Source: Dictyostelium purpureum (lineage: Eukaryota). From it: a DNA stretch of 64,000 bases. The position numbers and the translations under genes are program-made. Each line of letters opens with the position of its first letter. The first letter of the stretch is position 1. Positions 2,325-39,704 of the stretch are shown here, piece by piece. The notes under the pieces are model-generated. The model did no database searches, had not been told where the DNA came from, and saw only the letters and a list, made by a program, of their open reading frames with translations. The stretch covers positions 22,330-86,329 of the forward strand of contig NW_003519425.1 in the NCBI RefSeq assembly GCF_000190715.1. Direction: 5' to 3'.

Positions 2325-4409
2325 ATGGATAGCAATAGTAATAATAGAAAAATTATAATAAAAAATATAATTAATAATGTTATAAATAATGTTATAGATA
2401 ATAGAAATAATAATAATAATTCTAATAATAATTCCAATGGTGAATTTAAAATATTACCAATGAGCCATACGGAAGTTGTATTTTGGAAAGTTTTTAAAAA
2501 TTGTTATCTAAAAAAAAATATATTTTCATTTTTCATTTTTAAAGATATCTTTAGATATGATGATATTTATTTTGTCCAAGATATAGTTCTTTATAAAAAT
2601 GCAGAAGAAATATACAAGGATAAAGTCAAAAGTGGAGCAGTTTTAAATTTCAGTGGAAAGCCCGTTTTGGAAAAGGAAAGAGTTCCACCCATATCTAATA
2701 TTTATAAAACCATCAATAAAAATACTAAAGAGAATAAAATGTTTTACCAGATGTTGTTTACCAAGTACCCAGAGGCAAATTCATTTTATGGAGACTCATT
2801 ACAGCAGATAATAAATGAAAAAAACTATGTTGCCTTTAAGCAGTACAGAAAAATGTTTCCAATCTCGTCAGAATTTAGAGAATCACTACCTGACATTAAA
2901 GAAATAAATTGTTTTGAAAATTATATTATGTGTAAGTTGTTATATCCTAACTTTGATTATAAAAATAAAATATCAGTTAGTATATTTAAAGACAACCAAG
3001 GAAATTCCATTACATTTAAAAAGTTACTCCAAATGTGTTGTATGGAAGAAGATGAACAACTAATCAACTGTTCAAAAAAACTTTTATCGTTTCCTATTAG
3101 CCATTTGTTCCGAACCCACCGTCTATTGGTTTTAGAATACATTCACTTATTTTATAGTTTAACTAATAACCCTCTCCCACCAGATTGTAATTCAATATTT
3201 TTCAATAATAAAGAAGAAGTTGTAAATAACAAAAACAGTACCAACAACAATAACAATAACATTAACAACAACAATAACAATAACAATAACAACAACAATA
3301 ACTATTACAATAACAATAACAATAACAATAACAATAACAATAACAATAACAACAACAATAACAACAACAATAACAACAACAATAACTATTACCATTACCA
3401 TTACAATAACAATAACAATAACAATAACAATAACAATAACAATAATATCAGTATTAATAATAATAATAATAATAATATTAGTATAACTAATGACTCTCTC
3501 CCACCATATTGTAATTCATTACATTACAATAATAAAGAAGAATTTGTAAATAATAGAAAAAGTAACATGAAAAAAAAAATCAGAAACCTTAAATACCTTA
3601 ATAATAATTTTATTAGAACTGACTATATCCTACCATGTTATAATACATTACTTTATTGTAATAAAGAAGAACTTTTACAAAACAAAACCTGCTACGACAA
3701 CATCAACAACAATAATATCAGTGCTGATTATGATAATAATATTTATAATAATTCTCCCTTTTTGTCTATAAAAAAATTCTATAATAATTCATTTAGTAGT
3801 TTAAAAAAATTCGAAGTGAATGATTTTGTAGACAGATATGAAGCATTTTATTTAGTCGCTAATATAAAGTATGAAAAAATTGAAATGCATTGTTCTGTTT
3901 ATATCAATTATTTGTATTTCTTTGGTTACAAAGAAGATCTTTACAGGATAACCTATATGTACCCAAATTCTCTTGGCCCCCATACACGTGAATACATATA
4001 CTCTGATATTATTCATCAATTTGTAAACACCATTGTCAAAAATTCAACACTTCCAGACTATAATTCAATGGCCTCTGCAAAACAAATTTTATTTTGTTTT
4101 AAAATTATAAACAAAATTTGCAAATACAATTTTTATCACACACTAAAATCGCTTGCATCAAATTACCATCACCTATTATTCAATTCACAACAAGGTTGGT
4201 ACAATGACAAAAAAGTAAAGACATTCATCACCACAGCAATTCAAAGTGAAAATTCAATAATTGCTGAACTTTTACTCGATTTCACCAAGATGGATAAATA
4301 TACTTTTAAAAATATTTTATTCAACAAACAATCATGGGAATCAACACATGAAAAAGTCAGATTTAACAATCTTTTAAAAAATTACAAATTTAAAGGTATT
4401 TTTGATTAA
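2325..4409 (+). CDS. Hypothetical Asn-rich protein (694 aa). N-terminus carries the 'VVFWKVFKNCYL' motif shared with FNIP-repeat proteins. Contains three internal repeats of the 'LPPxCNSxxxNNKEExVNN' type.
   Basis: Long uninterrupted ORF starting at ATG 2325. Coding (AAC/AAT)n tract 3238-3470. CA-rich upstream region at 1860-2230. Confidence 0.6.
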   Translation: MDSNSNNRKIIIKNIINNVINNVIDNRNNNNNSNNNSNGEFKILPMSHTEVVFWKVFKNCYLKKNIFSFFIFKDIFRYDDIYFVQDIVLYKNAEEIYKDKVKSGAVLNFSGKPVLEKERVPPISNIYKTINKNTKENKMFYQMLFTKYPEANSFYGDSLQQIINEKNYVAFKQYRKMFPISSEFRESLPDIKEINCFENYIMCKLLYPNFDYKNKISVSIFKDNQGNSITFKKLLQMCCMEEDEQLINCSKKLLSFPISHLFRTHRLLVLEYIHLFYSLTNNPLPPDCNSIFFNNKEEVVNNKNSTNNNNNNINNNNNNNNNNNNNYYNNNNNNNNNNNNNNNNNNNNNNNNNNYYHYHYNNNNNNNNNNNNNNISINNNNNNNISITNDSLPPYCNSLHYNNKEEFVNNRKSNMKKKIRNLKYLNNNFIRTDYILPCYNTLLYCNKEELLQNKTCYDNINNNNISADYDNNIYNNSPFLSIKKFYNNSFSSLKKFEVNDFVDRYEAFYLVANIKYEKIEMHCSVYINYLYFFGYKEDLYRITYMYPNSLGPHTREYIYSDIIHQFVNTIVKNSTLPDYNSMASAKQILFCFKIINKICKYNFYHTLKSLASNYHHLLFNSQQGWYNDKKVKTFITTAIQSENSIIAELLLDFTKMDKYTFKNILFNKQSWESTHEKVRFNNLLKNYKFKGIFD
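3238..3470 (+). repeat. Coding (AAC/AAT)n tract (poly-Asn, ~75 codons) inside the 2325-4409 ORF.
   Basis: Direct read. Causes spurious antisense VIV(n) ORF 3192-3401. Confidence 0.9.
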
Positions 4410-4728
4410 ATAAATATATTTTATAGTTTTTAAAAAATATTGAGATCAATTGATCTTTAAAGTCTTAAATTTCTTTTTATTATAATTTCATTTTTTTTCA
4501 ATTTTTCCCCCTATTTTTTTTAAATTTTAAAATTTTTTTAAAATTTTTTCATTTTTTTAATTTTAATTTTTTTTAATGACATTTAAGTAAATAAATATAT
4601 ATTTATAAAGTATATAAAAAGTTTTATAGTTTTATAGTTTTATAAATTGTTGTAATATTGAGGTTAGTATTTAAATTACATTATTATATTTTTATTATGA
4701 CGATCTTTTTAACAATTATTTAAATAAG

Positions 4729-7700
4729 ATGGTTGAAAATTGCAATAATAAAGGAATAATAGATTATTACATTATACCAAGGAATAATGTTAATCACGAG
4801 GTTATTAGAATAATAGCCTCCAATGCAAATATAGAGCCACATGACTATTTAGAAAGAAATGAAAATATTATAAAGGTTTCAAACATAGATGGTTATAACT
4901 GCGATCAATCAAACTGGGAAAAAGAATATAACAATGATTGGAGGAATAAATTAAATAGTTTAATAAATCACGATGTTCAATATATAGAGAATAAACTAAA
5001 AGATTATATAAATGATTCAAAGATTAAACTTAGTATTTTTAAGAATCAATCAAGTAAAGGATTTAGTAGTGGCAATACCAATACTGATTTTGGTTATAAA
5101 GAGGCTTTGAAGAATTTTACACAACAGCTTGATTACTATAATTTAGAAAGAGTCTATAATAAATCAAATCCTTTGGGTATCGAAAGTTGGTTTTCTTTAG
5201 CCAGATGCGACATCAATGAATCAAAATCATCAAACGAATATAGGGACGAAGGCGGTTTACCATTAGATTCAAATTTATTTGAAGGTTATTCCGAAAGATT
5301 ATCTTGTTTTTCACAATCCAATCATATATTATTGTTCCCAAAACCAATAAATAATAGTGATAATGATAATGATAGTAATAGTACCAATAGTCAACAACAA
5401 CAAGAAAATAATAATAACGAAGAATTTAATTCAAATAGTTTCAATCAAATTTTAATAGAGTTAGTAAGAGGTATTTACCAGTATAATAGTTTACCAATAT
5501 TTTCTTTACATTTAAATAATGATTGCAGTATGGATCCAGTTGTTCACCCAGCATACAGAAATACATTAGTAGGAAAGGTTTTATTTGCATTGGACTATTA
5601 TATGAAGGGGTTTCTTAATGGTGGCTTCATATCTAGCGATTATATAACCAACTATTACGATATAAAACAACCAGAAGATCAAGATGAGAATGCCATTAAA
5701 TCAAAAATAAGAAACTTAAAAAGAAATATTATTGACATCAAAGAAGAGATAGAATCTGGTGAATGGATGCACTTAAAAGATAAATTCGAATACAAGTCAC
5801 TTAGAGAAAGATCTTTCGAGCTGGGTTTAGAAGGAAAAGGTAACTTTAATGAAGTTCAAGCGGAAATAAGGCAACTTCATGGTATAGACGAAGATCCTAC
5901 TATTATTGCATTACAAAAGGCATGGGATAATTTAAATAAACCTGAAAATGGAGGGATAAAATTTAATACAACTTTTAGAGTTATAGCAAAAGAGAATTCA
6001 TGTCAAATGGAGGATGGTATATGGGTAGTTGATGGTGGTTTTACTGTTACATATATTATTGAACCAACTAAACCATATCAAGAATACATTGATGCTTATA
6101 AATCAGTATTCCATGGCCAAACACCAAAAGAATATCAATTACAAGAACAAGTTTATAGAGAAACTGCCGATGCGATATCAAATCAAATGCCTCTATTACC
6201 ACCTTGTCGTAAATACTTTGAAATGTTCAAACAAATTTCATTTTTATCTTCATATCTATCAACTCTAAAATCATCTGGACAAATACCAAATATTTCTCAA
6301 ATTAAGGAATCATTAAATGATATAGTTAACTTTAAAACTCCATTAAAAATACCACCTTTACCAGTTAGATTTTATAAAACTATTCAAATATCATTAACAA
6401 TTGATGATATTTTAAGTTTTATTAACACCAATTATAATCCAAATAATAATAATAATAATGAAAATTTAGAAATCTTAGTGTATGAGCAATTAAAAAGTTA
6501 TTTAGAATTGGTTTCAAGTTATGATAATATTCAATTTATTAATACAAGTAAAGAACAAGAAGAAATGATCAAAACTAAGAAATTAGAATTAAAGCAAACA
6601 ATTTCACGAGTAATTCACAAAATGATTGAAATTAAATATGAACACCCAATAAGATTTAAAAGTATCAGTGATCAGTTAAATATATTATCAAATAATTTTT
6701 TAAATTTTTTAGAAATGCACGTGGATATTGTTTTGGTCCAACAGTTCTCTGATTTAGTCAGTATTATGGGGTCATTTATTGAAGTGTTGGAACAAAATAA
6801 TCAAAAAGGATCAGACTATGGTGCACCTTGGCCTGTTTTTCAAGATATTGTTAACGAAGAAGATTTATTATCTGATTCAGACACAGCAAGTGAAACCTAT
6901 CTCCAAAAGATGGAAAAGGTTTCAGATTTCCGTGACGAATGTATCAGATTAAATATCAGCCTCGATGATCTGAAAAAAAGTTGTATGGAAATCATAGATT
7001 CTTGCAAAATCTTTTTATTTTCCGATAATTGTAGAGGTTGTAATGGTGATTTAGAATTGCATAAGAATAACCTTTTTAGTCAAGAAGACTCACTCTGCAC
7101 AATTGACTCACTCAAATGTTTTAAAAAATTTCTCAATATGTGTAAAGATCGGCTAGAAGAAAAGAAAAGAACACAAGGTTGGTTTTCCTCTATATTCAGT
7201 AATCCAGAAAAAGAAATAGCTGAAATAGATCAAACTTTATCCACATTACAAATTTCAAATATTAATCAGTACTCCAGTGTAGTAATCAGTTATTTAGAAG
7301 AGACTTTTGGAAATGTAGAAGACCTTGTCTCTTCACTCAAAGAATCAACTATTGATTTTTTTGAAAATCATTTATCGCATTTTACAAAAAAACTATTAAA
7401 ATTAATAAAAGACTCAAGCGGAACCCTCGATATTATTCAATGGCTAACCCAAGGCCGTTCTTCATCGATCCAGTCCAAATTAAATAGCACATCAACATCA
7501 AATTTATTAAACATTAGTTTATTACCTTTATCAAAAATAGAAATTGCAGATTCTACTTATTATTCAAAAGAAGGGGAATACCAAAAGATTTGGGGTGGCT
7601 GTTTTTTCGATTTTACAACATTAATAATTAAACCAATTAAGGAACTATCATCTGATGGTGGCTGTTTCACAGTGGAATCAATTAAGGATACTTTTGAGGG

Positions 7701-10700
7701 ACATTTTAACAAATGGATTAGTTTAGAAAATGAACAGTTAATGGGTATTCAAATTAATATTTTACCAAGTGACTCTATTACACAACAATTCAATCAAATT
7801 AGTTATTATTCGGTACCACCAATAGTTAATGTATTTTACCAATTTATAAATGATGAGGAATTGCTTTTAGAATATATAAATAGTAAGTCCAGTAACGATT
7901 TAATGGAGCTTGACAGCTATAGCAATTCACTGTTACATCTCTCTGCATCTGTTGGTAATACATTGGTTTTAAAATCATTGATTTCAAAGATTGGTATTGA
8001 ACATATAAATGATAGAAATGACTTTGGCTATACTCCTCTATCAAGTGCAGCTATTATGGGTCAAGTAGAATCAGTTAAAGTTCTATTGGAACAAAATGAA
8101 ACCAATATAAATAGTATCAGTAATAATGGCTTCACCGCATTACATATATCAATTTTAGAAGGAAATTCCCAAGTCTCAAGATTAATAATCGAGAACTCTA
8201 AAACTAACTTAAACAAACAAATAAATGGAAACACACCGCTACATTTAGCATTATTAAGTAATCAAGTAGATTTAGCCATTGAACTCGTTAATAAAGGTGC
8301 ATCCCCATTTATATCAAGGCAGTTTGATGGGTTTACCCCGATCGAGGTTGCAGTTTCTTTGGGCCAATTAAAATTTATTAAACACATCGGCTACCAATCA
8401 TTAGAACCAAACTCTATATTATTAGCATATCAAACTACTTTAATGCATATCGCAGCTCAAAATGGATCTTTAAAAATATGTGACTGGTTAATTAAAAATG
8501 GTTATTCAGCCTCAACTCAAAATCTGTATGGATATACTCCATTGATGGTGGCATTAGAAAATGGATATCCAGAAATAGCACATTTAATATTAGATCATCA
8601 GCCATTATTATCAAACTATAAAGAACAGTCTTCACTTAAAGAGGATTTCCATTACCAATGCACTAGTAAAACCTTTGGCTCATATACAAATTGTAAAAAG
8701 CAAACATCCGCAATGATATCAATATCAAAAGGTTATATAGATATAGCATGGGCCATTTTAAAACAAGGTAAAGAATCATGGGAATATATAGACAAAAATG
8801 GGCACAAGCTTTTAGACTACATCATTCTATATGGAGAACATTTACTATTGGATAGAGTACTCTCAAGTGAAATAATTCCATTAAGTACTACACTTTTACC
8901 ATCTAAATCTATGTCACCCTCATCAACATATTTAGAATTCACCCTAAAGCAAAGAAATAATGAATTAGCAAATGTAATACTTAAACATAACCGTATCGAT
9001 ATAGATATACTTATGAAACAAGAGCAATCAATACTTTCACCAAAAAGACCTTTACACCAACCTTACACACTTTTACATTTAGCAGTAAGATCAAACCATA
9101 CCAAACTAGTTTGTAAATGGATCGAAGAAACAGATATATTATCAAACAATCACGAACCAAAAGATATTATCAAAAATCTAGAAATTAAAACAGGCAATTC
9201 CCAACCTCGAAGCTTATTATCAATTGCAGCTGAAAGTGGTAGCTTGGAATCTTTACAACTATTACTATCATCAAATCTATACAAAAAAACAATTGAAGAA
9301 GACCCAAACGCAATCATTTGTCCAAATGGTATTCATTTATTATATTATGCATTAATTGGTAGAAGTAAAAAGACAATCGAATATTTAGTTAAAACTTGCT
9401 ACATTGATCAACTTAACATCGAATTGGATAGGAATGATCCAGATATAACAGTAGTGGCAATATTATTATCAACCTCACAACATTCATTATTGCCATTCTT
9501 TTCAAGTCATGGTTTAAAGATTTATCAATTTGGCATAAATTCAGTCAATGAAGCTATTAAAGTTGACAATTATGAATCAATAGAATACTTTATTCAAAAA
9601 GCAAATATTGAACTAATTCAAAATAAAAAAGAACCAATAGGGGATGCTTTTTATTTCAACTTGTGGTTAAAATCAATTAAATATAATTCAAAAACAATTC
9701 TCAATTCATTTAGTCAACAAATATCATCTAGTTTATTAAATATTAAATCAAAATTTAAAAGTAACGATACATTAATAACATCACCTTTAACCGAAATAGT
9801 AAAATATATAGCCGTCCCATTGTTATTATACTATATCAATAATAAAAGAGATATTAATAATGTACAATTGCTTTTACAAAATCTACCCAATCAACTATTA
9901 AACCTGGAAACTATTTTAGCAAACCTCAAAGAATTAATAATAAATGATGATTATAAAATGTTAATCACATTATACCAATATTTCAACAAAAATAATAATA
10001 ATATTAATAATATTCAAGAAGAAATAATTAATAATTGTATAAAATTCAAATCTATTGGCTGTTTGGAATCAATGTATAAAGAAACAAATGAAAATAGTTT
10101 ATTAGAAGAGATTAAATATATCAGTGATGACAAGTACCATAATGAAAATGAAGTACTTAAAGATAGAATTTTTGATGCATTACAAAAAAAGAAAGATTTA
10201 ATTGTATTGAAATTTTTAGAATTATTTGGTGAAAGTTTACCATCAGTTCTAATCCAAGATACACCAGTTTTAGTTTTAACATTCAGTTTTTGTTGTGAGC
10301 TTTCATTTAAGTATTGTTTGTCAAAAGGTTGCAATGTGTTTGATAAAAGAGGAAGCGGAAACTATATTGGCCAAGGTGAAGATAAAAATCAACAAACAAA
10401 CTTATTACTATACTTATTAAAAGATCATTCAGTATTAGGTACTCAATTATTAATGCTAAAGAAATATTTAACAAAAGATACTATTCATCAATTATTCAAT
10501 CAAGAGATAAACATCGGCACTAATGAAAGTACATCTATGAAACTAACTCATTGGGACCTAATTGTTATAGTCTCCGAACCACGATTTATTCAAGAAGCAT
10601 ATGATGAATCGAATAGTGAAGAAGAAGAAAAAGTTATTATTGAGTTTGCGAATTCATTCGCTTTATCACTAAAAGAAAAACAGAGTAATAGACAACAATA

Positions 10701-13700
10701 TGATAGTTTTATAGAAGGAATGGCCAGTTTAGGTTTGGGATCAACCAAAGTACCATCTCAAAGATACGCAACTCATGTTAGGGATATTGATTACGAATCA
10801 TTCACCCCAAAATTATTTACTGTTCCAAATGAAACCATCGATTCCAATCTTTTAATTACCTGTACAAACTCTGGTAAATCAAGTTGGTTAGAAGAATGGT
10901 TAAATTATTCCCTATTATCAAAATTACAAGCTGATCAAGAGAACAATTCCCACAAAATATCAATTACATATTTAGAAAAGAGATTTCACCTTAATCGTAT
11001 GATTAATATTATTAATAAAGGTGATCCATCAAGAGTCACACCGCTTATGTATGCTTCAGTTTCCGGCAATATTGATTGTGTTAAAATTCTAATTGAACAT
11101 GGAGCTGACCCCACTTGTTTTGACACCAAAGGAAATTCAACTTTATCTTATGCAATCGAATCAAACTCCGAGAGTACTATCTGGTTTTTAATACCATATT
11201 GTTTATGTATATTAAATAATACAAATTCAAATAATGACTATTTAATATCCATGGCTGCAGAAAAAGGTTATACATCGTTGGTATCTAGATTCCTCAAATA
11301 TGGTGCTTATATTGATAACAATGGTAGCTTTAATAAACTACCGTTATCTAAAGCCTGTTTCTTTGGTAAATCAAATATTATTAAATTACTTTTATCAGCA
11401 AAAAGACTATTAGTTCCATCGACAATGTTTTCAAAATCTACATCCTCAACTACTTCCAATACCACACAGTTGGTAAATAAAGATATTACAAGTAGCAGTG
11501 TAAAAAAGGATAAAAGCAACGAAGAAAACTCAATCTTTAGCTATTCAGTTTCTCAGATTTCAGCACTAACAACATCATTATCAACATTTAAGACCATTTG
11601 GAATGAAGTTGGAATAGAAAATATTAGAGACTCACCACAACAAAAACATTTAAAGAATATAAATCCAATTGATTTTGGTGACTCTGCTTTTGATATTGCC
11701 ATTCAAAATAACAATTTATTAATGATAGAGTACTTGCTATCATTCAACCAAACAATTGGTTCGGAGGAAGAAGAAGATCGTTGGATAAAAGTGGTCCTAT
11801 CAGATAATCCATCATTAATTAGTTTATTAAACACACCAAACGATTTATTGTCAAATATACCAAGTCTTAAGGCAAATGCATTACATGTAGCAGCATTAAG
11901 AAAATGTCATCAAATTGTACCATCGCTGATTGAAATAGGTGTTAGTCCATTTGAAACATGTTTATATGAAAACACCACACCATTACAATTGGCTGCATCT
12001 TTAGGAAATTGTCAATTCATCAAAAGTCTATTAAGGTCTTTATATAAAAATAAAGATAAATTGAACCAAGTACTGACATCAAGTGGTCACTCATCTGGTG
12101 GAAAATCTGCATTAGAACTCGCTTTATTTAATGGCCATTTATCATCAGCATATATTTTAATTCAAGCATCTCCCGATATATCTATAAGTAAACCATCATT
12201 AAAACTTTTAAACTATATTGCATCAAATCAAAATTCTCAAAACAATTGGTCAAATCAGGAATTTCTATTCAAACTATTAGCTATTTATGGTGATGACTCT
12301 ATTTCCTTAAAGAATTTGAATACATCTCAAAAAGCTCAAGAATTTTATGACAGCAAGCTTATTTCATCTTTTTGGTCATCAGAAAAACTTGTATCTTTGC
12401 AAAAATCAATTGATTCTTTAGATTTTACATCAAAATCATATCAAGGTAAACTCGAAAGATCCATTAGATTTGGCTTTTCAATGAAAAAATCAAGAGAAAT
12501 ATTAACTATGAATTGGTTAACAACAAGTATAGAAAGAATAGATATTGGAAGTGATAACTATTTAGAAACCAGTGATATATTATTAAACTATTTGCAGGAT
12601 ATTAGTTTAAATAACTCTTCTTCAATGGAATTTTTAAAATTTGCTCAATCTAAATTTAGCTCAACATGTCAAATTAATCTATCAAGTTATATTTACCAGT
12701 ATTTAAATAGTAGTGTCATTTATATCGAAAATCTTTATAAGAACTTTGATGAAGCTTACCAATGCCTAGCTCAAATTCAAGATAAATCATTAATATCAGC
12801 ATTTGATAAAGAAATTGCAAGCAAATGGCCATGGATGTATCTATTTGAAGCAACAACTGACAACGGTTTGAAACTGTTTACAATTTTAGATAAGGTGTTA
12901 AAAACCAATAATATTCAACTTTACTATTGGTTTATTTCCCATTTTACTGCCCCAATAAAGAGTTTATTTATAGAATCCACTGTTCCACTAATTAAAAATG
13001 CCATTGATAGATTTTCACAATTTGTTACAATTTTCAAAGATGACCCAAGTCTACTAGAATTTCTACCATACCCACCATCAGATTTACAATTATCATTCCA
13101 ATGTGAAAATGGAAGAAAAAATATTCAACTTGCAATTAATTCTCTTCAAAAACAAAAACAACTTCAATATATTCAAGTTTCATTTCTTCAATATTTACCA
13201 AAATCAACAGAATATATTCAAAAATCATTAAAAAATTCTTTACCAGATACATTATTAGTTTGTAGACAAACATTTGAAATATCCTCTTTTCTTATAAATA
13301 ATAATAATAATAATAATCAAATTGAAGAACAAGTATTAGATTTAATTTCTTCATGTTCACATGTATTATTGAAAGCTTTTAGAGGTATAAGAAATAGTTC
13401 AAATAACAAAGTTTTAAATTTAGTATTTTTATTAAACTATCAAACAAATTTAAGATTATTAGAAATGATGGATTATCAAACTTCACTTCCAACAGATTGC
13501 AAATTATCATTGGTTCAATTCTTTGATTCAATTTTACAAGTTAATGAATATAATATTATCTCTGAAGGGGATATATTGTCAATGGAATCCTCAAAAGAAA
13601 AGAATAACATTACAAGCGGTAGAATTGATTGGTGTAGAGATATGCAAACCATTATAGCTCAATCCCCACAGCTTATTAAATATATTGGCCAATCACATTT

Positions 13701-16530
13701 CTCGAAACTTTTAGGAATGACTTTAACCTATCAAAAGACCATTCAGAATAGTACTACCACATCTATTAAAAACATTGGTGGATACTCTTTAAGATCTTAT
13801 ATTGATATCTCTCAAAAACTATTATCACTATCATCAATAATATCAGTCAATAGAATTTGGGAAATTTCAGATTATAAAGGATTAGAATGTTTATTCAAGA
13901 ATGTGATGGATGAAGAAATCAAAAATAAAACCAATCAAATACCCTTTAGCCAAGTTTGGGAATACTTTAAATATCCTCAAAATAAGCAGCCACTTCAAGA
14001 TGATGATCTAAAAGATGTTGAAGCAATGTATTTAGAAATAGAGAGTATTCAAGATCAATTCAAAGATTTGACAAAACAATCACTAATAGAATATAGTATT
14101 AAAACATCAAAAAAACTAATTAAGCAAGTAAATAAGAAAACTATTGATAGCGAATTAGATACTATAGATACTGATGAAATTATCGATGCACCAAAGAAGG
14201 AGCAATTACTATTAATTAATAGCAAAACCAAAAAGTTAACAATAAAACTATTAAGTAGTTTACGTTGGTTAATTTACTATGAATTTGGTATCTTTCCATA
14301 TAACACTCAAATATGTTGTGTATTGGGCTTAATTTTATACTCTAAGAACAAAACTTCATCTCTCAGTCAGCTAAATGGTAGAATTGGTCAAGTTCTTACA
14401 GGTGAAGGCAAATCCACAATCGTAGCATTATTGGCATCATATTGTGCTTTATTGGATAGACAAATCGATATTATTACTACATCAGAATATTTAGCATACA
14501 GAGACTACATCAAATTTGAAGGATTTTTCAAGCTATTTGGTTTAACCTCATCCCATATTTGTGGTGATTCCCCTCAAAAAGAACAATTTCAAGCTCAAAT
14601 TTTATTTGGTACCAATACAAACTTTGAATTTGCACAACTCCGTGATTGTCTTTATGATACAAAGTCTTTGTTTACAAATGATGGAACACCACGTAAAAAG
14701 GATATAGTAATTGTAGATGAAGTTGATAGTTTATTTATGGACTCTGCATTAAATTCAGCAAGAATGGCAATACCAACCAATGATAGTCACGAATTTATGT
14801 ATAAACCAATTTCAAATTATGTATATAGCAATTTTGTATCAAAACTAAACGATAAACAATTGAAAAAACTGTCAACCGTATTATATGATGACGAAAATAG
14901 CTACAAAGATGATTTCTTATTAAATAATAACGAGTTCTTTACAATAACCCCAACCCACTTTCAAGATATCAGAGATCTTTTATCAAATATTGTAAACTCG
15001 TTACCATATGATGAAAAAACAAAACAATTATCAATCAAATGGCTAAAAGGACTAGAAGATAAGAATATTAAAATGATATTGGACAACGCCATTAAATCAT
15101 TTATATTAAAGGAAGGTTTTGACTATGTTATAATAGAAGATAATAATGATAAATCAAATGAAAACCAGTCAAAGAGTACAGTTGTTATAGTTGACAAAGC
15201 AAATACTGGTAGATTAATGATTGGGTCGCGTTTTTCAGATGGCCTACATGAATTTTTAGAGGTTAAACATGGATTATTACCAGAACAAGAAACTCTTACA
15301 GCTGCAGCCATTTCTCATCCATCATTCTTTAGTCAATATAATTGTGTATTTGGTTTAACAGGTACATGTGGTGAACCATCAGAAAGATTAGAATTAATGG
15401 AGGTATATAATGTTGATTCATTTAATGTACCAAGCTATAAACCTTCCCAACGTAAACAATTAGATTCAAAAATCTTTAAAACCATTAAAGAACACCAAGA
15501 TTATATCACTAATGAAATAAAAGAACTGATAATCCAATCTAGACCTGTATTATTACTATTACCAACAATCAAAGAATCACAATCATTCATTACTATTTTA
15601 CAATCACATAATATTCAACCACAACTATTAAATGAAATGCAACAAGAAGATGAAGAATTCATTATTACAAGAGCTGGTGAACCTGGTATTGTTACAGTCG
15701 CAACCAATACAGCAGGCCGTGGTACAGATATCAAATTAACAAAGCAATCTCTCGATAATGGCGGTTTATGCGTATTATTTGGTTTTTATCCAAAGAATTT
15801 AAGAGTTGAAAATCAAGGTTTGGGTAGATCCGGTAGACAAGGTCAAATTGGTAGTTGTAAAATAATAATTTGTTTAGAAACTTTAGAATCATACGATGAT
15901 ATTAGAGATCAAATTAATGATGAAAATGAAATAACAGCAACTGTAGAAAAGGAACAATTTGAAATATTAGACTTTGTGCGAAGTGAAAAATGTCAAAATT
16001 TGTCAAATATAAGATTAAATCAATGTTTTATTGAAAAGGAACAATTTAGGTTACTTGAAAGATATTTTAAACTACTTTTAAATATTAGAAACTACTTAAA
16101 AACATCAGAATTTAATCAACTATTAAAAGAAATTATTAAAGAACAAATCGAAGACCAATGCCACACAGAGGTTCTAATCAAATGTAAATGTAGTAATGAA
16201 CAATTTAAATTATTTTTAAATTCGTCAACATTTTCAAACTTATTAGACTCATGTCCAAAGTTATTATTCTCATCGTCCTCTTCACAGCATAGCAATACCC
16301 TTCAATCTTTAACCGAAAGAATTAAGCAATCAATCATTGACTTTATCCAACAAGAATGGGCTCAATTTTTTACTATAAATTTTTCTACTCGTTCCCAAGC
16401 TCCCCATGATCAATTTAATAAATGGTGGTATCAAGATTCAATCGCTCACTGTTTAGAATTTAACATTGAATCCCATTTCAAAAAACTTATTTACGAATTA
16501 ATCTTTCAAAATAAACAACAAAATAATTAA
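4729..16530 (+). CDS. Giant multidomain protein (3,933 aa) with three ankyrin-repeat blocks and a complete C-terminal SecA-type (preprotein-translocase-like) DEAD ATPase motor.
   Basis: Single ORF with no internal stops. ANK consensus (TPLHxAAxxGHxxxVxxLL-like) at roughly aa 1065-1290, 2100-2225 and 2380-2490. SecA motifs are LTGEGKST...ITTSEYLAYRD (Walker A, NBD1), LFGTNTNFEFAQLRDCL, IVIVDEVDSLFMDSA (Walker B), VVIVDKANTGRLMIGSRFSDGLHEFLEVKHG...QETLTAAAIS...FGLTGTCGE (PPXD/NBD1 end), VATNTAGRGTDIKL and ENQGLGRSGRQGQIGS (NBD2). Confidence 0.75.
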   Translation: MVENCNNKGIIDYYIIPRNNVNHEVIRIIASNANIEPHDYLERNENIIKVSNIDGYNCDQSNWEKEYNNDWRNKLNSLINHDVQYIENKLKDYINDSKIKLSIFKNQSSKGFSSGNTNTDFGYKEALKNFTQQLDYYNLERVYNKSNPLGIESWFSLARCDINESKSSNEYRDEGGLPLDSNLFEGYSERLSCFSQSNHILLFPKPINNSDNDNDSNSTNSQQQQENNNNEEFNSNSFNQILIELVRGIYQYNSLPIFSLHLNNDCSMDPVVHPAYRNTLVGKVLFALDYYMKGFLNGGFISSDYITNYYDIKQPEDQDENAIKSKIRNLKRNIIDIKEEIESGEWMHLKDKFEYKSLRERSFELGLEGKGNFNEVQAEIRQLHGIDEDPTIIALQKAWDNLNKPENGGIKFNTTFRVIAKENSCQMEDGIWVVDGGFTVTYIIEPTKPYQEYIDAYKSVFHGQTPKEYQLQEQVYRETADAISNQMPLLPPCRKYFEMFKQISFLSSYLSTLKSSGQIPNISQIKESLNDIVNFKTPLKIPPLPVRFYKTIQISLTIDDILSFINTNYNPNNNNNNENLEILVYEQLKSYLELVSSYDNIQFINTSKEQEEMIKTKKLELKQTISRVIHKMIEIKYEHPIRFKSISDQLNILSNNFLNFLEMHVDIVLVQQFSDLVSIMGSFIEVLEQNNQKGSDYGAPWPVFQDIVNEEDLLSDSDTASETYLQKMEKVSDFRDECIRLNISLDDLKKSCMEIIDSCKIFLFSDNCRGCNGDLELHKNNLFSQEDSLCTIDSLKCFKKFLNMCKDRLEEKKRTQGWFSSIFSNPEKEIAEIDQTLSTLQISNINQYSSVVISYLEETFGNVEDLVSSLKESTIDFFENHLSHFTKKLLKLIKDSSGTLDIIQWLTQGRSSSIQSKLNSTSTSNLLNISLLPLSKIEIADSTYYSKEGEYQKIWGGCFFDFTTLIIKPIKELSSDGGCFTVESIKDTFEGHFNKWISLENEQLMGIQINILPSDSITQQFNQISYYSVPPIVNVFYQFINDEELLLEYINSKSSNDLMELDSYSNSLLHLSASVGNTLVLKSLISKIGIEHINDRNDFGYTPLSSAAIMGQVESVKVLLEQNETNINSISNNGFTALHISILEGNSQVSRLIIENSKTNLNKQINGNTPLHLALLSNQVDLAIELVNKGASPFISRQFDGFTPIEVAVSLGQLKFIKHIGYQSLEPNSILLAYQTTLMHIAAQNGSLKICDWLIKNGYSASTQNLYGYTPLMVALENGYPEIAHLILDHQPLLSNYKEQSSLKEDFHYQCTSKTFGSYTNCKKQTSAMISISKGYIDIAWAILKQGKESWEYIDKNGHKLLDYIILYGEHLLLDRVLSSEIIPLSTTLLPSKSMSPSSTYLEFTLKQRNNELANVILKHNRIDIDILMKQEQSILSPKRPLHQPYTLLHLAVRSNHTKLVCKWIEETDILSNNHEPKDIIKNLEIKTGNSQPRSLLSIAAESGSLESLQLLLSSNLYKKTIEEDPNAIICPNGIHLLYYALIGRSKKTIEYLVKTCYIDQLNIELDRNDPDITVVAILLSTSQHSLLPFFSSHGLKIYQFGINSVNEAIKVDNYESIEYFIQKANIELIQNKKEPIGDAFYFNLWLKSIKYNSKTILNSFSQQISSSLLNIKSKFKSNDTLITSPLTEIVKYIAVPLLLYYINNKRDINNVQLLLQNLPNQLLNLETILANLKELIINDDYKMLITLYQYFNKNNNNINNIQEEIINNCIKFKSIGCLESMYKETNENSLLEEIKYISDDKYHNENEVLKDRIFDALQKKKDLIVLKFLELFGESLPSVLIQDTPVLVLTFSFCCELSFKYCLSKGCNVFDKRGSGNYIGQGEDKNQQTNLLLYLLKDHSVLGTQLLMLKKYLTKDTIHQLFNQEINIGTNESTSMKLTHWDLIVIVSEPRFIQEAYDESNSEEEEKVIIEFANSFALSLKEKQSNRQQYDSFIEGMASLGLGSTKVPSQRYATHVRDIDYESFTPKLFTVPNETIDSNLLITCTNSGKSSWLEEWLNYSLLSKLQADQENNSHKISITYLEKRFHLNRMINIINKGDPSRVTPLMYASVSGNIDCVKILIEHGADPTCFDTKGNSTLSYAIESNSESTIWFLIPYCLCILNNTNSNNDYLISMAAEKGYTSLVSRFLKYGAYIDNNGSFNKLPLSKACFFGKSNIIKLLLSAKRLLVPSTMFSKSTSSTTSNTTQLVNKDITSSSVKKDKSNEENSIFSYSVSQISALTTSLSTFKTIWNEVGIENIRDSPQQKHLKNINPIDFGDSAFDIAIQNNNLLMIEYLLSFNQTIGSEEEEDRWIKVVLSDNPSLISLLNTPNDLLSNIPSLKANALHVAALRKCHQIVPSLIEIGVSPFETCLYENTTPLQLAASLGNCQFIKSLLRSLYKNKDKLNQVLTSSGHSSGGKSALELALFNGHLSSAYILIQASPDISISKPSLKLLNYIASNQNSQNNWSNQEFLFKLLAIYGDDSISLKNLNTSQKAQEFYDSKLISSFWSSEKLVSLQKSIDSLDFTSKSYQGKLERSIRFGFSMKKSREILTMNWLTTSIERIDIGSDNYLETSDILLNYLQDISLNNSSSMEFLKFAQSKFSSTCQINLSSYIYQYLNSSVIYIENLYKNFDEAYQCLAQIQDKSLISAFDKEIASKWPWMYLFEATTDNGLKLFTILDKVLKTNNIQLYYWFISHFTAPIKSLFIESTVPLIKNAIDRFSQFVTIFKDDPSLLEFLPYPPSDLQLSFQCENGRKNIQLAINSLQKQKQLQYIQVSFLQYLPKSTEYIQKSLKNSLPDTLLVCRQTFEISSFLINNNNNNNQIEEQVLDLISSCSHVLLKAFRGIRNSSNNKVLNLVFLLNYQTNLRLLEMMDYQTSLPTDCKLSLVQFFDSILQVNEYNIISEGDILSMESSKEKNNITSGRIDWCRDMQTIIAQSPQLIKYIGQSHFSKLLGMTLTYQKTIQNSTTTSIKNIGGYSLRSYIDISQKLLSLSSIISVNRIWEISDYKGLECLFKNVMDEEIKNKTNQIPFSQVWEYFKYPQNKQPLQDDDLKDVEAMYLEIESIQDQFKDLTKQSLIEYSIKTSKKLIKQVNKKTIDSELDTIDTDEIIDAPKKEQLLLINSKTKKLTIKLLSSLRWLIYYEFGIFPYNTQICCVLGLILYSKNKTSSLSQLNGRIGQVLTGEGKSTIVALLASYCALLDRQIDIITTSEYLAYRDYIKFEGFFKLFGLTSSHICGDSPQKEQFQAQILFGTNTNFEFAQLRDCLYDTKSLFTNDGTPRKKDIVIVDEVDSLFMDSALNSARMAIPTNDSHEFMYKPISNYVYSNFVSKLNDKQLKKLSTVLYDDENSYKDDFLLNNNEFFTITPTHFQDIRDLLSNIVNSLPYDEKTKQLSIKWLKGLEDKNIKMILDNAIKSFILKEGFDYVIIEDNNDKSNENQSKSTVVIVDKANTGRLMIGSRFSDGLHEFLEVKHGLLPEQETLTAAAISHPSFFSQYNCVFGLTGTCGEPSERLELMEVYNVDSFNVPSYKPSQRKQLDSKIFKTIKEHQDYITNEIKELIIQSRPVLLLLPTIKESQSFITILQSHNIQPQLLNEMQQEDEEFIITRAGEPGIVTVATNTAGRGTDIKLTKQSLDNGGLCVLFGFYPKNLRVENQGLGRSGRQGQIGSCKIIICLETLESYDDIRDQINDENEITATVEKEQFEILDFVRSEKCQNLSNIRLNQCFIEKEQFRLLERYFKLLLNIRNYLKTSEFNQLLKEIIKEQIEDQCHTEVLIKCKCSNEQFKLFLNSSTFSNLLDSCPKLLFSSSSSQHSNTLQSLTERIKQSIIDFIQQEWAQFFTINFSTRSQAPHDQFNKWWYQDSIAHCLEFNIESHFKKLIYELIFQNKQQNN
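7925..8595 (+). other. Ankyrin-repeat block 1 within the giant ORF (about 6 repeats).
   Basis: Repeats such as GYTPLSSAAIMGQVESVKVLLEQ, GFTALHISILEGNSQVSRLII, GNTPLHLALLSNQVDLAIELVNKGA, GYTPLMVALENGYPEIAHLIL. Confidence 0.7.
11030..12190 (+). other. Ankyrin-repeat blocks 2 and 3 within the giant ORF.
   Basis: RVTPLMYASVSGNIDCVKILIEHGADP, GNSTLSYAIESN, ISMAAEKGYTSLVSRFLKYGAYID, ANALHVAALRKCHQIVPSLIEIGVSP, TTPLQLAASLGNCQFIKSLL, KSALELALFNGHLSSAYILI. Confidence 0.65.
14290..15900 (+). other. SecA-like ATPase motor domain (NBD1 + preprotein-crosslinking-like insertion + NBD2) at the C-terminus of the giant ORF.
   Basis: Every motor-domain signature motif of SecA is collinear with and recognisably similar to E. 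coli SecA (GEGKT..VTVNDYLAQRD / GTNNEYGFDYLRDNM / VDEVDSILIDEA / RRWSDGLHQAVEAKEG / GMTGTA / ATNMAGRGTDI / DNQLRGRSGRQGDAGS). No SecA C-terminal translocation (HSD/HWD) region follows. Confidence 0.75.
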
Positions 16531-16617
16531 ATAAAAGTAAAATAACTTTATGATAAAAATAACTTTAATACAAAACCTTTTTTTTTATTTTTATATTTAA
16601 ATTTTAATTAACGATGG

Positions 16618-18023
16618 TTAATGAGGCTGTTGTGGTTGTTGTTGGGCTGTTACGGAAATTGGATCAGAACAATATGGACATTTACCAAAAATTGTAGAAA
16701 ATGAGTATCTTGGATTGGGTAACGCTTTTAACCATTCGTATATGCAAGTATGATGAAAATGCTTTTGACACTTTAAATTATTACAAACTATATCTGGTAA
16801 CGAGTAGTTACCTGTATCTTTTATATCTTGATCATCCGTTGGAGCGTGGAAAAATCTATGGGTATAACAAATTGCACACTCGATAACAATCTCTTCAATT
16901 TTAGTATTTTGTTTTAATGGAAATTCTAAATTTAAAATAGTTTGAAAATTATCAACCGGTGACCTGTTATCTTCTTTTTGAGCTCTCCATTCGTTTAAAT
17001 TTTGATTTAATAAATTCTTTAAATTTGAGACTTTTTTAGCAGGACCGAGGAAATTGTGGTTAGATGGAAATGATCTTGGTTGTTGTGGCGATACTTCGAA
17101 ACATAATGAACAGCCATTGCCTAAAGCAATTCTACGGTAGGTTGATGATCTTTTAGGGTTCTCTGGTTCCAAAACCCATGAATTTGAGTCGATATCATCC
17201 ATAACATCAAAGAACTCTTGATACTCATTGATCATTATTTCGATTAGTTTCAATATATTTATGATTGAATATTTATTTTTGATTTCATCCTGTTTTTGTT
17301 TATGCTTTTCTTCCAATAGTAATTGTTGATTGTGATTTTGTATTCTATTCACCAATTCTAAATTGTCAATGGGTAAATCACATCTAATTAATGGTAACTG
17401 GCTTGGATAATTTTCATTAATTGCAAACTCTATTGAATATTCTCTGTTTTTTATATCTAATAATAATATTTCAAATGTTGAAAATGTATTTTTATCAATC
17501 TCTACAATTTTATCCCACCCTATATCATCCAATTCCTTTAAAACCAAATATAATACATTAATTGGTAGTGATGGTTTATTTGAGACTATAATTGGTGCCT
17601 TTCCTATTGTTGATGTTTGTTTTGATAATCTGTCGATAATATCTTTTAATTCATATAAAAATTGATTTAAATTTTTACATTGCAAAAATCTCTATTTTGA
17701 AAAAAAAAAATTTATTAGTACATTATAAATTATAAAGTTTATTGTTTTGTTTAAAGTAAACTTACATTTTTAATTGTTTGTGAATAAGGATGTAATATAT
17801 CGTATAGTTCTTTTGTGCAATTGAACTCTAATTCTTCAAAGAATATACCATTATTTGTATTATTTTTATTATTATTGTTATTGTTATTGTTGCTTTTATT
17901 ATCGTTTTCTATTGTCCTAATTTCCACAGGATATTCTTTCCCCAAAACATTTATAAATCCTTTATATTCATTTAATTTGGTATTTAAAGGAATTAAATGT
18001 GGAAAAGGTATTTCATCATTCAT
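16618..18023 (-). CDS. fncL: FANCL-type E3 ubiquitin ligase (Fanconi anaemia group L homologue). Two exons: complement(join(16618..17691,17766..18023)).
   Basis: C-terminal PHD/RING is highly similar to FANCL (CAICYTH..DIVCNNLKCQKHFHHTCIYEWLKAL..FSTIFGKCPYCSDPI). Intron GTAAGT...AAAATAG is phase 0. Exon 2 begins AGA upstream of the TTG labelled 'M' in the ORF track. Poly-Asn tract in exon 1. Confidence 0.8.
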
Positions 18024-38300: not shown

Positions 38301-39704
38301 CTCAGAGGTCATACCGATTGGATCAACTTTTGCACTTTCTCACCAGATTCAAAGAAATTAGTCTCTGGTGGCTGGGATTTCAATATTCGTGTATGGAACG
38401 TCAGAACTCAAAAAGAAACCTTATGTCTTAAAGGTCATACTAGCTCCATCGAAAAAGCTTTCTTTACCGCAGATCAAAAGTATATTATCAGTTGCAGCTT
38501 TGATGGCTCTGTTAGAGTTTGGGATTCTGAATTTGGTAGTGAAATTACAACACTCCACCATGCATCTCGTATCAGCGATGTTGTTGATTCAAAGGACAAT
38601 TCTGGTAGAATCTTTTCTTCCTCCGATGATGGTATCATTAAATCATGGTACCCAGTATCTGGTTCATGTTTAGCTACATTTGCTGGTCATTCTGGTGCCG
38701 TTAATATGGTTGATATTAAACCATCAAGCAGTGGCTCAGGTTTTGGTGGTTTCTCCTCATTCTCATCATCAAGCAAATCAGACAGTGCTCAATCCTTGTC
38801 ATTTGCATCTGCCTCAAGCGATGGTACAGTTAAACTTTGGGAATTTAACTCTTCTAAAAATCTTTTATCTGCCCACAAAGGTCCAATCAATAAATGTGTA
38901 TTTTCAAAGTGCGGTAACTATATTGCATCAGCTGGTCAAGACTCTGTATTAAATATTTGGGACTCCACAACCCTTGTAAATCTTAGAACCTTAATTTTAG
39001 ACTCACCAGTTACTGCATGCACTTTTGATCCACAAGGCCTATTATTTATTGGTTTACAAAATGGTACCTTTAATATATATAATAAAACATGGGACTCAGT
39101 TATTCATTCAGGTTTTTCAGAAAGTAAGATTTCATATGCATCATCAAGTGTAGCTAATATTTTTGCATTCTCAACTTGGGAAAATGTAGTTTTCATTGTC
39201 AATTTGGAAACCAAATCCAAAACACCATTAATGGAATTCGAGGATTGGGTAGAGGTTGTAGAATTTTCAAGTAAAGGTAGTGTTTCAGCTGCAGGAACAA
39301 GAACAAAGGATTTAGCAGTTTTTGATCCACAATCAGGAAAACATTCATACAAAAACGCCTCTAGCTATACTACCTCGCTTTCATTCTCACCAAATGAAAC
39401 CCAATTAGCCATAGGTTCATTTGATGGCTCTGTACAACTCTTAAACTCTGAAACAGAAAAATTTGTTAGAATTCTCACCGCCCAAACTTCATCAATTACT
39501 GGTTTAAGATTTTTAGATTCAGACCGTCTCGTTTCAGTATCAAGCGATCGTTCATTAGTAGTATGGAATTTCAAACTCTCTGCCATTGAAAATGAATTCA
39601 TTCATAATTCACCAATCACCTCATTGGATATCCACCAAAATAATATTATCACATCCGATACAAATGGTAATATTTATTTCTTAAAATATCATAAAAAAAA
39701 TTAA
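32342..39704 (+). CDS. tep1: TEP1 homologue (telomerase/vault-associated protein 1) with TROVE, DUF4062-like, NACHT P-loop NTPase and long WD40 array. Three exons: join(32342..32925,33007..33606,33683..39704), about 2,400 aa.
   Basis: N-terminal RGG box then a TROVE-like region (..LIKEPRVNHLTPTLETIMSCVYTLSYYDPEFVLKLILYTRDELGIRTVANYMICLAS.. continuing across both introns). KVFISSTFLDMQGERDMLVKRVFPELR (DUF4062-like). Walker A GKPGCGKS. At least 20 WD40 repeats (GHSNWISCFSFS..WDETVIIWDL etc). Introns GTAAGT..TTTTAG are phase-consistent. Confidence 0.75.

Follow-up and report, generated by a model that had tools for sequence, protein, structure and literature searches.

A giant gene of Dictyostelium purpureum as the fused form of a conserved module of domain X, ankyrin repeats and a SecA-like ATPase

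The window analysed here is a stretch of 64,000 nucleotides from Dictyostelium purpureum (contig NW_003519425.1, positions 22,330 to 86,329), and the gene in question is a giant open reading frame (ORF) on its plus strand, at 4729..16530. This ORF is the fused eukaryotic form of a conserved module, in which a very large protein containing a conserved domain (here called domain X) and ankyrin repeats is coupled to a SecA-like ATPase. Both the identity of the gene and its evolutionary placement as a fused module can be given with high confidence. The fuller explanation that we favour, namely a fused and horizontally acquired module that would work as an ATP-driven polypeptide clamp independent of SecY, is on balance the probable one.

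The C-terminal part of the protein had been read in the initial annotation as a SecA motor from a series of eight motifs, and all eight were located between aa 3225 and 3705. These are GEGKS (aa 3225-3229), TSEYLAYRD (3251-3259), GTNTNFEFAQLRD (3294-3306), the Walker B motif VDEVDS (3329-3334), FSDGLH (3502-3507), LTGTCG (motif III, 3543-3548), ATNTAGRGTDI (motif V, 3658-3668) and GRSGRQG (motif VI, containing the arginine finger, 3699-3705). In an alignment of 61 sequences of the family, the columns for Walker A, Walker B, motif III, motif V and the arginine finger are invariant. An HMM search against Pfam and a structure prediction of the motor, both of which the initial annotation had proposed, lead to SecA as well. 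The Pfam families matched are SecA_DEAD (1.2e-48, aa 3091-3552), P-loop_SecA (3.8e-26, aa 3572-3672) and SecA_PP_bind (4.4e-6, with 27.7 bits against a cut-off of 23.5, aa 3432-3511). The generic helicase families do not compete with these: there is no Pfam match to DEAD in the motor, and Helicase_C reaches 16.7 bits, below its cut-off of 23.5. When the motor was compared with PDB sequences using phmmer, all 24 matches were SecA or SecA2 proteins, the best being Thermotoga maritima SecA (2.5e-55). The AlphaFold2 model of aa 3090-3933, calculated from the 61-sequence alignment, has a pLDDT of 86.3 and a pTM of 0.89, and when it is compared with the PDB by Foldseek the best 36 matches are all SecA, led by 5eul_A (E 4.8e-33, TM 0.66 over 857 columns). 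The next class, comprising DinG/XPD and DEAD-box proteins, starts only at E 1e-8. Judged by sequence and predicted structure, the motor is, as had been proposed, a genuine member of the SecA family and not a generic superfamily 2 (SF2) helicase.

The first part of nucleotide-binding domain 1 (NBD1; aa ~3176-3342, 14254..14754) contains a Q-motif-like PYNTQ at aa 3190-3194 together with Walker A and Walker B. It is followed by the PPXD (preprotein cross-linking domain; aa ~3343-3500, 14755..15228), an insertion in NBD1 with a helical bulb, which is identified by the SecA_PP_bind match, by the model and by the spacing of the motifs. The remainder of NBD1 and NBD2 (aa ~3501-3735, 15229..15933) carry FSDGLH, motifs III, V and VI and the P-loop_SecA match, and are modelled with pLDDT above 90. 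What had been described as an insertion of ~90 aa between Walker B and FSDGLH is in fact the PPXD, which is found at that site in every SecA. The distance from Walker B to FSDGLH is 173 aa, compared to 138 aa in bona fide SecA, and the PPXD is ~35 aa longer than the canonical one, being predicted as a stem and a bulb.

The motor is nevertheless not a canonical SecA. The NCBIfam SecA models score 221.8-255.7 bits on it, far short of their cut-offs of 800-1,493 (these include the TIGR00963/PRK12904 equivalogs), and the models for accessory SecA2 (TIGR03714, TIGR04221, TIGR04397 and NF012136) score 164-221 bits, against cut-offs of 725-1,100. The C-terminal translocation domains had been reported as missing, and this is true at the level of sequence only, because the AlphaFold2 model has a topology there that resembles the scaffold and wing. 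On the sequence side, no Pfam match to SecA_SW (PF07516) was found in the giant protein. The zinc-binding SEC-C tail (PF02810) is present in nearly all of the bona fide SecA proteins listed; it was found neither in the giant protein nor in any of P0001-P0080 among the homologues listed. The two-helix finger, which in SecA inserts into SecY, has the signature GIxLRxYxQxDP; neither the giant protein nor the consensus of the family contains it, and the stretch that corresponds to it aligns at the lowest confidence only. In addition, hhalign gives a probability of 0.06% for a match of the last 215 aa (3719-3933) to the SecA profile. On the structural side, the ~200 aa beyond NBD2 are helical (C-terminal helical domain, aa ~3736-3933, 15934..16527). 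A 54-residue helix directly follows NBD2 (model residues 648-701), and then come short helices, a helix of 37 residues (765-801) and a terminal helical hairpin. The Foldseek alignments cover whole SecA chains; the sequence similarity of this domain to SecA is not significant. A tryptophan conserved in the family lies in the sequence QQEWAQFF (aa 3874-3881); a forced greedy alignment pairs QQEWAQ with the DxxWxEHL of the SecA scaffold helix, at low confidence.

A further distinguishing feature is found on the N-terminal side of the motor. The helical region of ~430 aa that precedes it (aa ~2746-3175, 12964..14253) is homologous to the N-terminal extension of stand-alone SecA-like proteins from bacteria, with an hhalign probability of 97.4% and an E value of 1e-11 over 282 columns. 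This homology is detected only by profile-profile comparison, since phmmer found nothing when the linker (aa 2450-3180) was compared with the bacterial extensions. Trees were constructed by neighbour joining (NJ) with Kimura distances and 100 bootstraps. The phylogeny of the motor against bacterial SecA, which had also been suggested, places it in a separate SecA-like clade, divided from bona fide SecA in 100/100 replicates of one motor tree and 91/100 of another. As far as sequence comparison goes, the motor is a non-canonical member of the SecA family. It was correctly judged not to be an organellar SecA, given that it lies outside the bona fide SecA clade and at the C-terminus of a protein of 3,933 aa.

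The nearest relatives of the motor include ~80 proteins of 900-1,400 aa, which are 33-43% identical to it and all lack SecA_SW and SEC-C; the few that have a named source are from Legionella, Chlamydiales and a gammaproteobacterial metagenome-assembled genome (MAG). Bona fide SecA proteins come next, at ~31% identity. In each of the three bacterial loci (3/3) that were approached from the motor side, the SecA-like gene adjoins a co-directional gene for an ankyrin giant, and each giant contains a match, 30-40% identical, to aa ~241-563 of the D. purpureum protein (E 1e-34 to 1e-53). The same pairing was then seen from the other side. A profile of domain X was used to scan one genome per bacterial and archaeal species in GTDB and identified 74 bacterial loci, almost all of them in lineages associated with eukaryotes. 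In the Chlamydiae these are Parachlamydiaceae, Simkaniaceae, Protochlamydia and Rhabdochlamydiaceae, one of the last being a symbiont of Dictyostelium giganteum. A further group is made up of Legionella drancourtii, L. nautarum, L. moravica, L. worsleiensis and one Coxiella sp. The remainder are from Holosporaceae, Thiotrichales/Francisella-like MAGs, Mycoavidus, MAGs of Neisseriaceae, Rickettsiales and Margulisbacteria/Termititenax. The initial annotation had guessed that ankyrin and SecA-like domains recur together in amoeba-associated bacteria and had suggested a search of their genomes; with 74 loci the recurrence is far stronger than was guessed. Its other suggestion, an undescribed eukaryotic SecA-like NTPase family, is not supported, as the family is not specific to eukaryotes.

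A SecA-like motor is encoded within the 10-kb flanks in 40 of the 74 loci, and in 39 of these 40 it is on the same strand. The frames of motor and giant, taken from stop to stop, are contiguous or overlapping in 17 loci (-130 to +7 nt), while a gap of 31-262 nt separates them in a further 8. Most of the 34 loci with no motor (25) are cut by the end of the contig, and 7 belong to a short (~950 aa) X-only subfamily from Simkaniaceae and other Chlamydiales (L057, L062, L063, L065, L066, L067 and L071), with ORFs of ~730-1,060 aa, no motor within 10 kb on either side, and a single cluster in the X tree (97%). In three bacterial loci X and motor are in one ORF. Among them the protein of Holosporaceae 'Namur', 3,711 aa long, has its domain X at aa 244 and its motor at aa 2853, and is colinear with the giant ORF. 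Many terminal pairs are common to the X tree and the motor tree, and it follows from these shared groupings that X and the motor co-evolve.

Some of the bacterial loci have neighbours that deserve mention in their own right. In a Legionella contig (L005, Logan SRR32963985, 12800-19690) the X-ankyrin/SecA-like pair lies beside an HTH-peptidase S24 repressor, CsrA, DUF2859, a DtrJ-like protein and DUF3487, and this cassette may be mobile, because such a set of neighbours is typical of integrative conjugative elements. On another contig (L003, Logan SRR34066014) a gene for 1,949 aa with OTU, ankyrin and GTPase-like parts comes first, then the SecA-like gene and then the X-ankyrin giant, so that three large proteins of host-interaction type are encoded in one array. 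In the gammaproteobacterial MAG (L007/L012, contig_1331) the motor is fused to NACHT and HEAT in a protein of more than 2,424 aa, directly upstream of a 3,436-aa giant with X, ankyrin and TPR, and a nucleotidyltransferase pair and a UvrD-type helicase are nearby. As regards neighbours of the type I secretion system (T1SS) kind, among the loci with called genes that were inspected, only L004 has a gene with ABC_membrane and ABC_tran, two genes downstream.

Domain X itself (aa ~232-570, 5422..6438) is a conserved, globular and previously unnamed domain, delimited by its HMMER relatives, its conserved residues and its predicted core. An exhaustive HMMER search with aa 1-1050 returned 347 cluster representatives at E ≤ 1e-3. 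Most of the 150 relatives listed are 2,000-3,700 aa long and share both domain X and a GGC motif ahead of their ankyrin arrays. The statement that the first 2,000 aa hold no nameable domain therefore needs to be revised, as ankyrins are present from about aa 1060 onwards and a strongly conserved domain, the one with these 347 relatives, occupies aa 232-570. The recognisable motifs are PIFSLHLN (aa 256-263), LDYYMKGFLNGG (288-299), TTFRVIAK (414-421), TVTYIIEP (439-446) and PPLPVRF (542-548), with a variable charged insert at aa ~325-408. The polar residues E244, S259, D289, K293, R417 and Y442 are invariant in the alignments, and H261 is nearly so. AlphaFold2 predicts the core with pLDDT ~85-95. 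Searches of Pfam, NCBIfam, PADLOC and the PDB, the last by sequence as well as by fold, gave no match to domain X. A profile restricted to X gave no match to PDB sequences at E ≤ 10, and Foldseek, which was run against the PDB with domain X inside a model of 961 residues whose mean pLDDT is 62, reached no E better than 0.29. Pfam and NCBIfam scans of single X members identified no family common to more than one of them. A word-index search with aa 1-1050 found nothing, which is a false negative caused by Asn-rich low-complexity words; with aa 235-570 it found one protein only. A profile of domain X that included ankyrin columns was discarded, as it returned only ankyrin proteins.

From domain X to the GGC motif there is a region (aa ~571-937, 6439..7539) that is conserved among dictyostelids and is predicted to be helical, with low pLDDT. 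The pre-ankyrin segment (aa ~938-1060, 7540..7908) contains the sequence WGGCFF (aa 955-960), of which GGC is invariant in 17-18 diverse giants. In tblastn comparisons the matches of the bacterial giants begin at aa 938, and span aa 938-1581. Ankyrin repeats are matched by Pfam Ank_2 at 2.2e-68, in 8 stretches, and fall into three blocks. Block 1 (aa ~1061-1600, 7909..9528) has Ank_2/Ank_4 at aa 1069-1163 and 1239-1286 with a further match at aa ~1449-1559, block 2 (aa ~2058-2225, 10900..11403) has Ank/Ank_3/Ank_5 at aa 2096-2142 and is followed by a Ser/Thr-rich low-complexity linker (aa ~2226-2290), and block 3 (aa ~2380-2490, 11866..12198) has Ank_2 at aa 2385-2485 (4.7e-13). The NCBIfam models AnkY and AnkH score 55-65 bits against a cut-off of 600, and reflect the ankyrin repeats only. 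The first 3,000 aa had been taken for an unrelated appendage of the motor; domain X and the ankyrins are instead its conserved partner, which in bacteria is encoded by the neighbouring gene.

Orthologues of the giant gene are found in four other dictyostelid genomes. The proteins of Polysphondylium violaceum (3,268 aa) and Acytostelium subglobosum (3,441 aa) are fused and colinear with the giant ORF. In Heterostelium album, PPL_05043 is a relative of the motor (47% identity), and tblastn of the giant protein against its locus (GL290986.1, L001) is colinear over aa 128-3924. The locus has a single in-frame TAA at 9896-9898, giving two annotated genes, one for a protein of 2,159 aa and the other PPL_05043. 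This TAA, which is crossed by one of the tblastn segment pairs, could be a sequencing error, a pseudogene mutation or a site of readthrough. It was also considered as an ancestral gene boundary, but this was rejected, because it lies inside a conserved ankyrin repeat, at about aa 2212 of the giant protein. Dictyostelium cf. discoideum (JBTAPH010000039.1, L002, 10001-12399) has a motor-only protein (P0002) of 619 aa, 53-54% identical to aa 3179-3826, and neither domain X nor ankyrins are encoded within 10 kb of it; a second matching segment in another frame suggests an intron near the 3' end. Outside the dictyostelids, the choanoflagellate Monosiga brevicollis has a fused protein of 3,678 aa with X, ankyrin and SecA-like parts (A9VCV1, P0210). 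In UniRef it is named 'PARP', although a PARP domain is absent from its Pfam results at E ≤ 1e-4. A fused ORF of 3,567 aa with the same three parts is at 6001-16704 of the 1.37-Mb ENA contig ERZ18440741 ptg000420l (L006). The stretch around it is gene-poor and has a domesticated transposase of the FAM200/ZBED5 type, which suggests a eukaryotic, possibly animal, genome.

The reading of 4729..16530 as one giant eukaryotic ORF with ankyrin blocks, made in the initial annotation, holds. The whole gene is a single uninterrupted ORF of 3,933 codons including the stop, starting with ATG and colinear with its counterparts in H. album, P. violaceum and A. subglobosum. With the composition of the ORF itself (A 0.40, T 0.32), under which a random codon is a stop in 8.5% of cases, a run of 3,933 codons without a stop would arise by chance with a probability of ~1e-152, and the other five frames contain 203-526 stops. 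An in-frame TAA is found at 4672-4674, 55 nt before the ATG. The sequence is AT-rich with Asn-rich tracts, as is usual in Dictyostelium, and its GC content of 0.25-0.29 is that of its surroundings. The flanking genes are eukaryotic. FANCL lies 88 bp downstream on the minus strand, and the others encode a NACHT-WD40 protein, a DEAD-box helicase and an FNIP-repeat protein, the last being an exact match to D. purpureum DICPUDRAFT_77962. The eukaryotic flanks on both sides, together with a GC content like that of the surroundings, establish that this is a eukaryotic gene and not contamination. No stretch of the giant protein showed transmembrane-like hydropathy in a hydropathy scan, and a signal peptide is not evident.

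Two other ORFs on the plus strand of the window may be described here. That at 2325-4409 encodes 694 aa, with very long Asn runs broken by YYHYHY and with no Pfam match. It was considered as a 5' exon of the giant gene and rejected: its own stop is followed by a 320-bp AT-rich spacer, from which it is concluded that it is a separate gene, and there is also the in-frame stop at 4672-4674. The ORF at 33909-39704 encodes a STAND/NLR-like giant of 1,931 aa, with DUF4062, an NTPase of the NACHT/NPHP3_N/APAF1_C type and many WD40 repeats. Its GC content of ~0.34 is clearly above that of its surroundings (~0.2-0.27).

As to the origin of the gene, a transfer from bacteria into the ancestor of the dictyostelids, possibly of an already fused form, is likely on the evidence of the trees. 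This direction is favoured because the SecA-like clade roots on bacterial SecA, the dictyostelids are nested within it, and the diversity in bacteria is far larger. For the first two of these reasons, the initial annotation's reading of a motor that came from bacteria and was repurposed is preferable to its other one. The dictyostelid motors are monophyletic (96%). Two metagenomic groups, for which the sole source label is Bdellovibrionales (P0091), branch before them in the motor tree, and the dictyostelid clade is at least 3 nodes deep in 91/91 of the replicates that recover both it and the SecA-like clade. In the X tree, a split with 86% support puts dictyostelids, Monosiga and the eukaryote-like sequence with the proteobacterial branch (Legionellales, Coxiella, Holosporaceae and Thiotrichales), and not with Chlamydiae.

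A mechanism can be proposed tentatively. In host-associated or intracellular bacteria the module usually consists of the gene for a giant, made up of an N-terminal region, domain X, a helical region, the GGC motif and ankyrins, and of an adjacent co-directional gene for a non-canonical ATPase of the SecA family, in which NBD1, PPXD and NBD2 lie between an N-terminal extension and a C-terminus that are both helical. The residues of the ATPase site are intact, and the architecture of the SecA clamp (PPXD and long scaffold helix) is confidently predicted by AlphaFold2. Binding and hydrolysis of ATP between NBD1 and NBD2 would open and close a clamp around a polypeptide, much as in SecA. The motor would be cytosolic and would act, with no channel of the SecY type, as an ATP-driven holder, unfolder or threader of proteins. 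Cytosolic, channel-free action is probable because no finger signature, SEC-C, signal peptide or membrane segment was detected. The ankyrin arrays would bring in the substrates, and domain X, which may be an enzymatic or targeting head, would act on them or localise them; its invariant polar residues are compatible with the active site of an enzyme.

Several points count against this explanation as a whole. The backbone of the SecA-like clade is poorly supported (7-44% bootstrap) and the trees are NJ only, so that any direction or number of transfers read from them is provisional. The grouping of dictyostelids with Monosiga in the unrooted X tree (66%) would also fit an older presence in eukaryotes. 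Gomez-Valero et al. 2014 (PMC4256840, Table 5) reached the opposite conclusion on direction for lfa2470 of L. fallonii, a gene described as SecA DEAD-like, and place it with those acquired from eukaryotes. As for the mechanism, the C-terminal helices could be a functional finger that is beyond the reach of sequence methods; a distant fold match to domain X may have been missed, given that only the 961-residue model of mean pLDDT 62 was compared; and the substrate, the role of domain X and the independence of a channel are all inferred. The first three of these points, together with the ankyrin repeats, which are typical of effector domains acquired from hosts, and the fact that the bacterial carriers are nearly all associated with protists, would suit a module that arose in eukaryotes, was taken up by intracellular bacteria as an ankyrin effector and was later split into two genes. 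We regard this as unlikely: SecA is bacterial and the SecA-like clade roots on it, the two metagenomic groups branch earlier with the dictyostelids lying deep in every replicate counted, and 74 species-level loci in GTDB stand against a handful of eukaryotes, in which the distribution is patchy (dictyostelids, one choanoflagellate and one eukaryote-like contig) and the giant ORF has no interruption. It is hardly credible that the gene is an artefact or something ordinary, be it contamination, a misassembly, an organellar SecA, a generic SF2 helicase or two genes misread as one. Admittedly, the protein collection that was searched does not contain the exact product of 3,933 aa, and the annotation of H. 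album divides the orthologue in two. This division, however, goes back to one TAA within an ankyrin repeat, through which the alignment runs, and for P. violaceum, A. subglobosum and Monosiga the annotation gives a fused protein. The D. purpureum contig has eukaryotic genes on both sides of a sequence that is AT-rich and Asn-rich like Dictyostelium, and so long a stop-free ORF is not expected by chance (~1e-152). An N-terminal transit peptide cannot serve a motor that is C-terminal and moreover outside the bona fide SecA clade, while a generic helicase is contradicted by the Helicase_C score (16.7 against 23.5 bits) and by Foldseek, which prefers SecA by 25 orders of magnitude.

Other functions have also to be weighed. 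The tight coupling of motor and giant, by operon or fusion, would be expected if the motor were an ATPase dedicated to the export or unfolding of that giant, passing an ankyrin protein of 2,000+ aa to a secretion system or through a membrane. The dictyostelid gene would then be a relic of a self-export device. The bacterial carriers use different systems to secrete effectors, a type III secretion system in Chlamydiae and the Dot/Icm type IV secretion system in Legionellales, which makes a motor dedicated to one route unlikely. Further, the giant protein has no transmembrane segment or signal peptide, and every ATPase motif has been kept across the dictyostelids, in a cytosol lacking any bacterial secretion system. 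Self-export is therefore improbable here, though passages of West-Roberts et al. 2023 (10.1101/2023.11.21.568195) propose it for SecA_DEAD and PPXD in giant bacterial proteins, and passages of Kaur et al. 2021 (PMC8195603) put forward the same idea for giant actinobacterial toxins. A slightly higher, although still low, probability is given to an NLR-like protein of conflict or immunity, in which the ankyrins would detect an invader, the switch would be the SecA-like NTPase and the effector would be domain X. The combination of effector, repeats and NTPase in one giant does resemble the STAND/NLR architecture. The gammaproteobacterial motor fused to NACHT and HEAT, beside a giant with X, ankyrin and TPR, points the same way, as does the SecA copy with TPR and NACHT reported by Kamneva et al. 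2015 (PMC4452313), and an unrelated NACHT-WD40 giant is present in the same window. Yet PADLOC has no match for X or the motor, the Pfam results for the giant ORF include neither NACHT nor NB-ARC, the distribution in bacteria follows a eukaryote-associated lifestyle and not exposure to phage, and SecA motors are processive polypeptide ATPases that are not known as oligomerisation switches. Both of these readings are less consistent than a captured cytosolic clamp with an intact module in cytosolic eukaryotic proteins and in host-associated bacteria. We give about the same low weight as to the NLR-like reading to a more far-reaching one, in which the module would be a new machine, a SecA-derived motor that intracellular bacteria deliver into the protist cytosol and that some hosts have captured. 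Domain X would then be a new enzyme or a new membrane-targeting fold, and the task of the motor would be the threading or unfolding of host proteins, or even docking on Sec61, the host homologue of SecY, at the endoplasmic reticulum. This organelle is exploited by the vacuoles of Legionella and Chlamydiae.

SecA is the textbook case of a motor with one job, that of moving proteins through the bacterial SecY channel. The module described here suggests that a motor derived from SecA has kept its ATPase and clamp, has lost any recognisable signature of channel insertion, and has become tied by operon or fusion to X-ankyrin giants, in dozens of intracellular bacterial lineages and a few eukaryotes. 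It points to a system of two components in Chlamydiae, Legionellales and Holosporaceae that is uncharacterised and probably directed at the host, and to an entire module having passed between bacteria and protists. Dictyostelids, in which knockout and imaging are possible, offer a genetically tractable setting in which to study it. It is worth adding that database labels are also corrected, several members of the clade being annotated as 'preprotein translocase subunit SecA'. Full-text literature searches (SecA with ankyrin, Dictyostelium, Legionella or Monosiga) retrieved no other relevant paper, and no experimental characterisation of the stand-alone SecA-like proteins was found in the searchable literature. 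The terms ankyrin, Legionella, Dictyostelium and Monosiga are absent from PMC4452313, and domain X, the X-ankyrin/SecA-like pair and the eukaryotic fusions are not described in the passages concerned of PMC3482391, PMC4256840 and 10.1101/2023.11.21.568195.

The motor can be compared with several known systems. It resembles the canonical SecA of Escherichia coli, Bacillus subtilis and T. maritima (PDB 5eul, 3din and 1m6n) in having NBD1 and NBD2 with all of the ATPase motifs, the PPXD at the same position in NBD1 and a long helix after NBD2, with a whole-chain TM of 0.59-0.66. It differs from them in being only ~25% identical in alignment, in its extra ~430-aa helical N-terminal extension, in its position at the C-terminus of a 3,933-aa eukaryotic protein predicted to be cytosolic, in lacking SecA_SW, SEC-C and the finger signature by sequence, and in belonging to a separate clade (100% bootstrap). 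Non-canonical forms of SecA have been described before. Passages of West-Roberts et al. 2023 report SecA_DEAD and PPXD, with no scaffold or wing, inside giant proteins of Omnitrophota and Actinobacteria, and the 'secondary SecA_DEAD domain proteins' of Kamneva et al. 2015 are connected with genes for type I secretion. Compared by description, and for the former from those passages, both are like our motor in being non-canonical SecA with no scaffold or wing, in or beside very large proteins; they differ in having many transmembrane segments or T1SS-type neighbours, and in coming from free-living or predatory bacteria, and for neither is there mention of domain X, of a coupling to ankyrins or of copies in eukaryotes. 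Closer in lifestyle are the effectors of Amoebophilus asiaticus, an endosymbiont of amoebae, for which passages of Zhang et al. 2012 (PMC3482391) describe SecA-like helicase-related domains. Here too a SecA-like ATPase domain is found in host-directed proteins, but these carry APD1/APD2 lipoprotein prodomains, and the likeness is one of description, not of sequence. The closest counterparts are the stand-alone SecA-like proteins, such as P0011 of L. clemsonensis, P0013 of L. nautarum and lfa2470 of L. fallonii. They belong to the same clade, with 33-44% identity in the motor, and share with it the same undetected domains, the homologous N-terminal extension and an X-ankyrin giant as partner. 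The difference is that in most bacteria this partner is an adjacent gene, whereas in the giant ORF of D. purpureum the two are fused.

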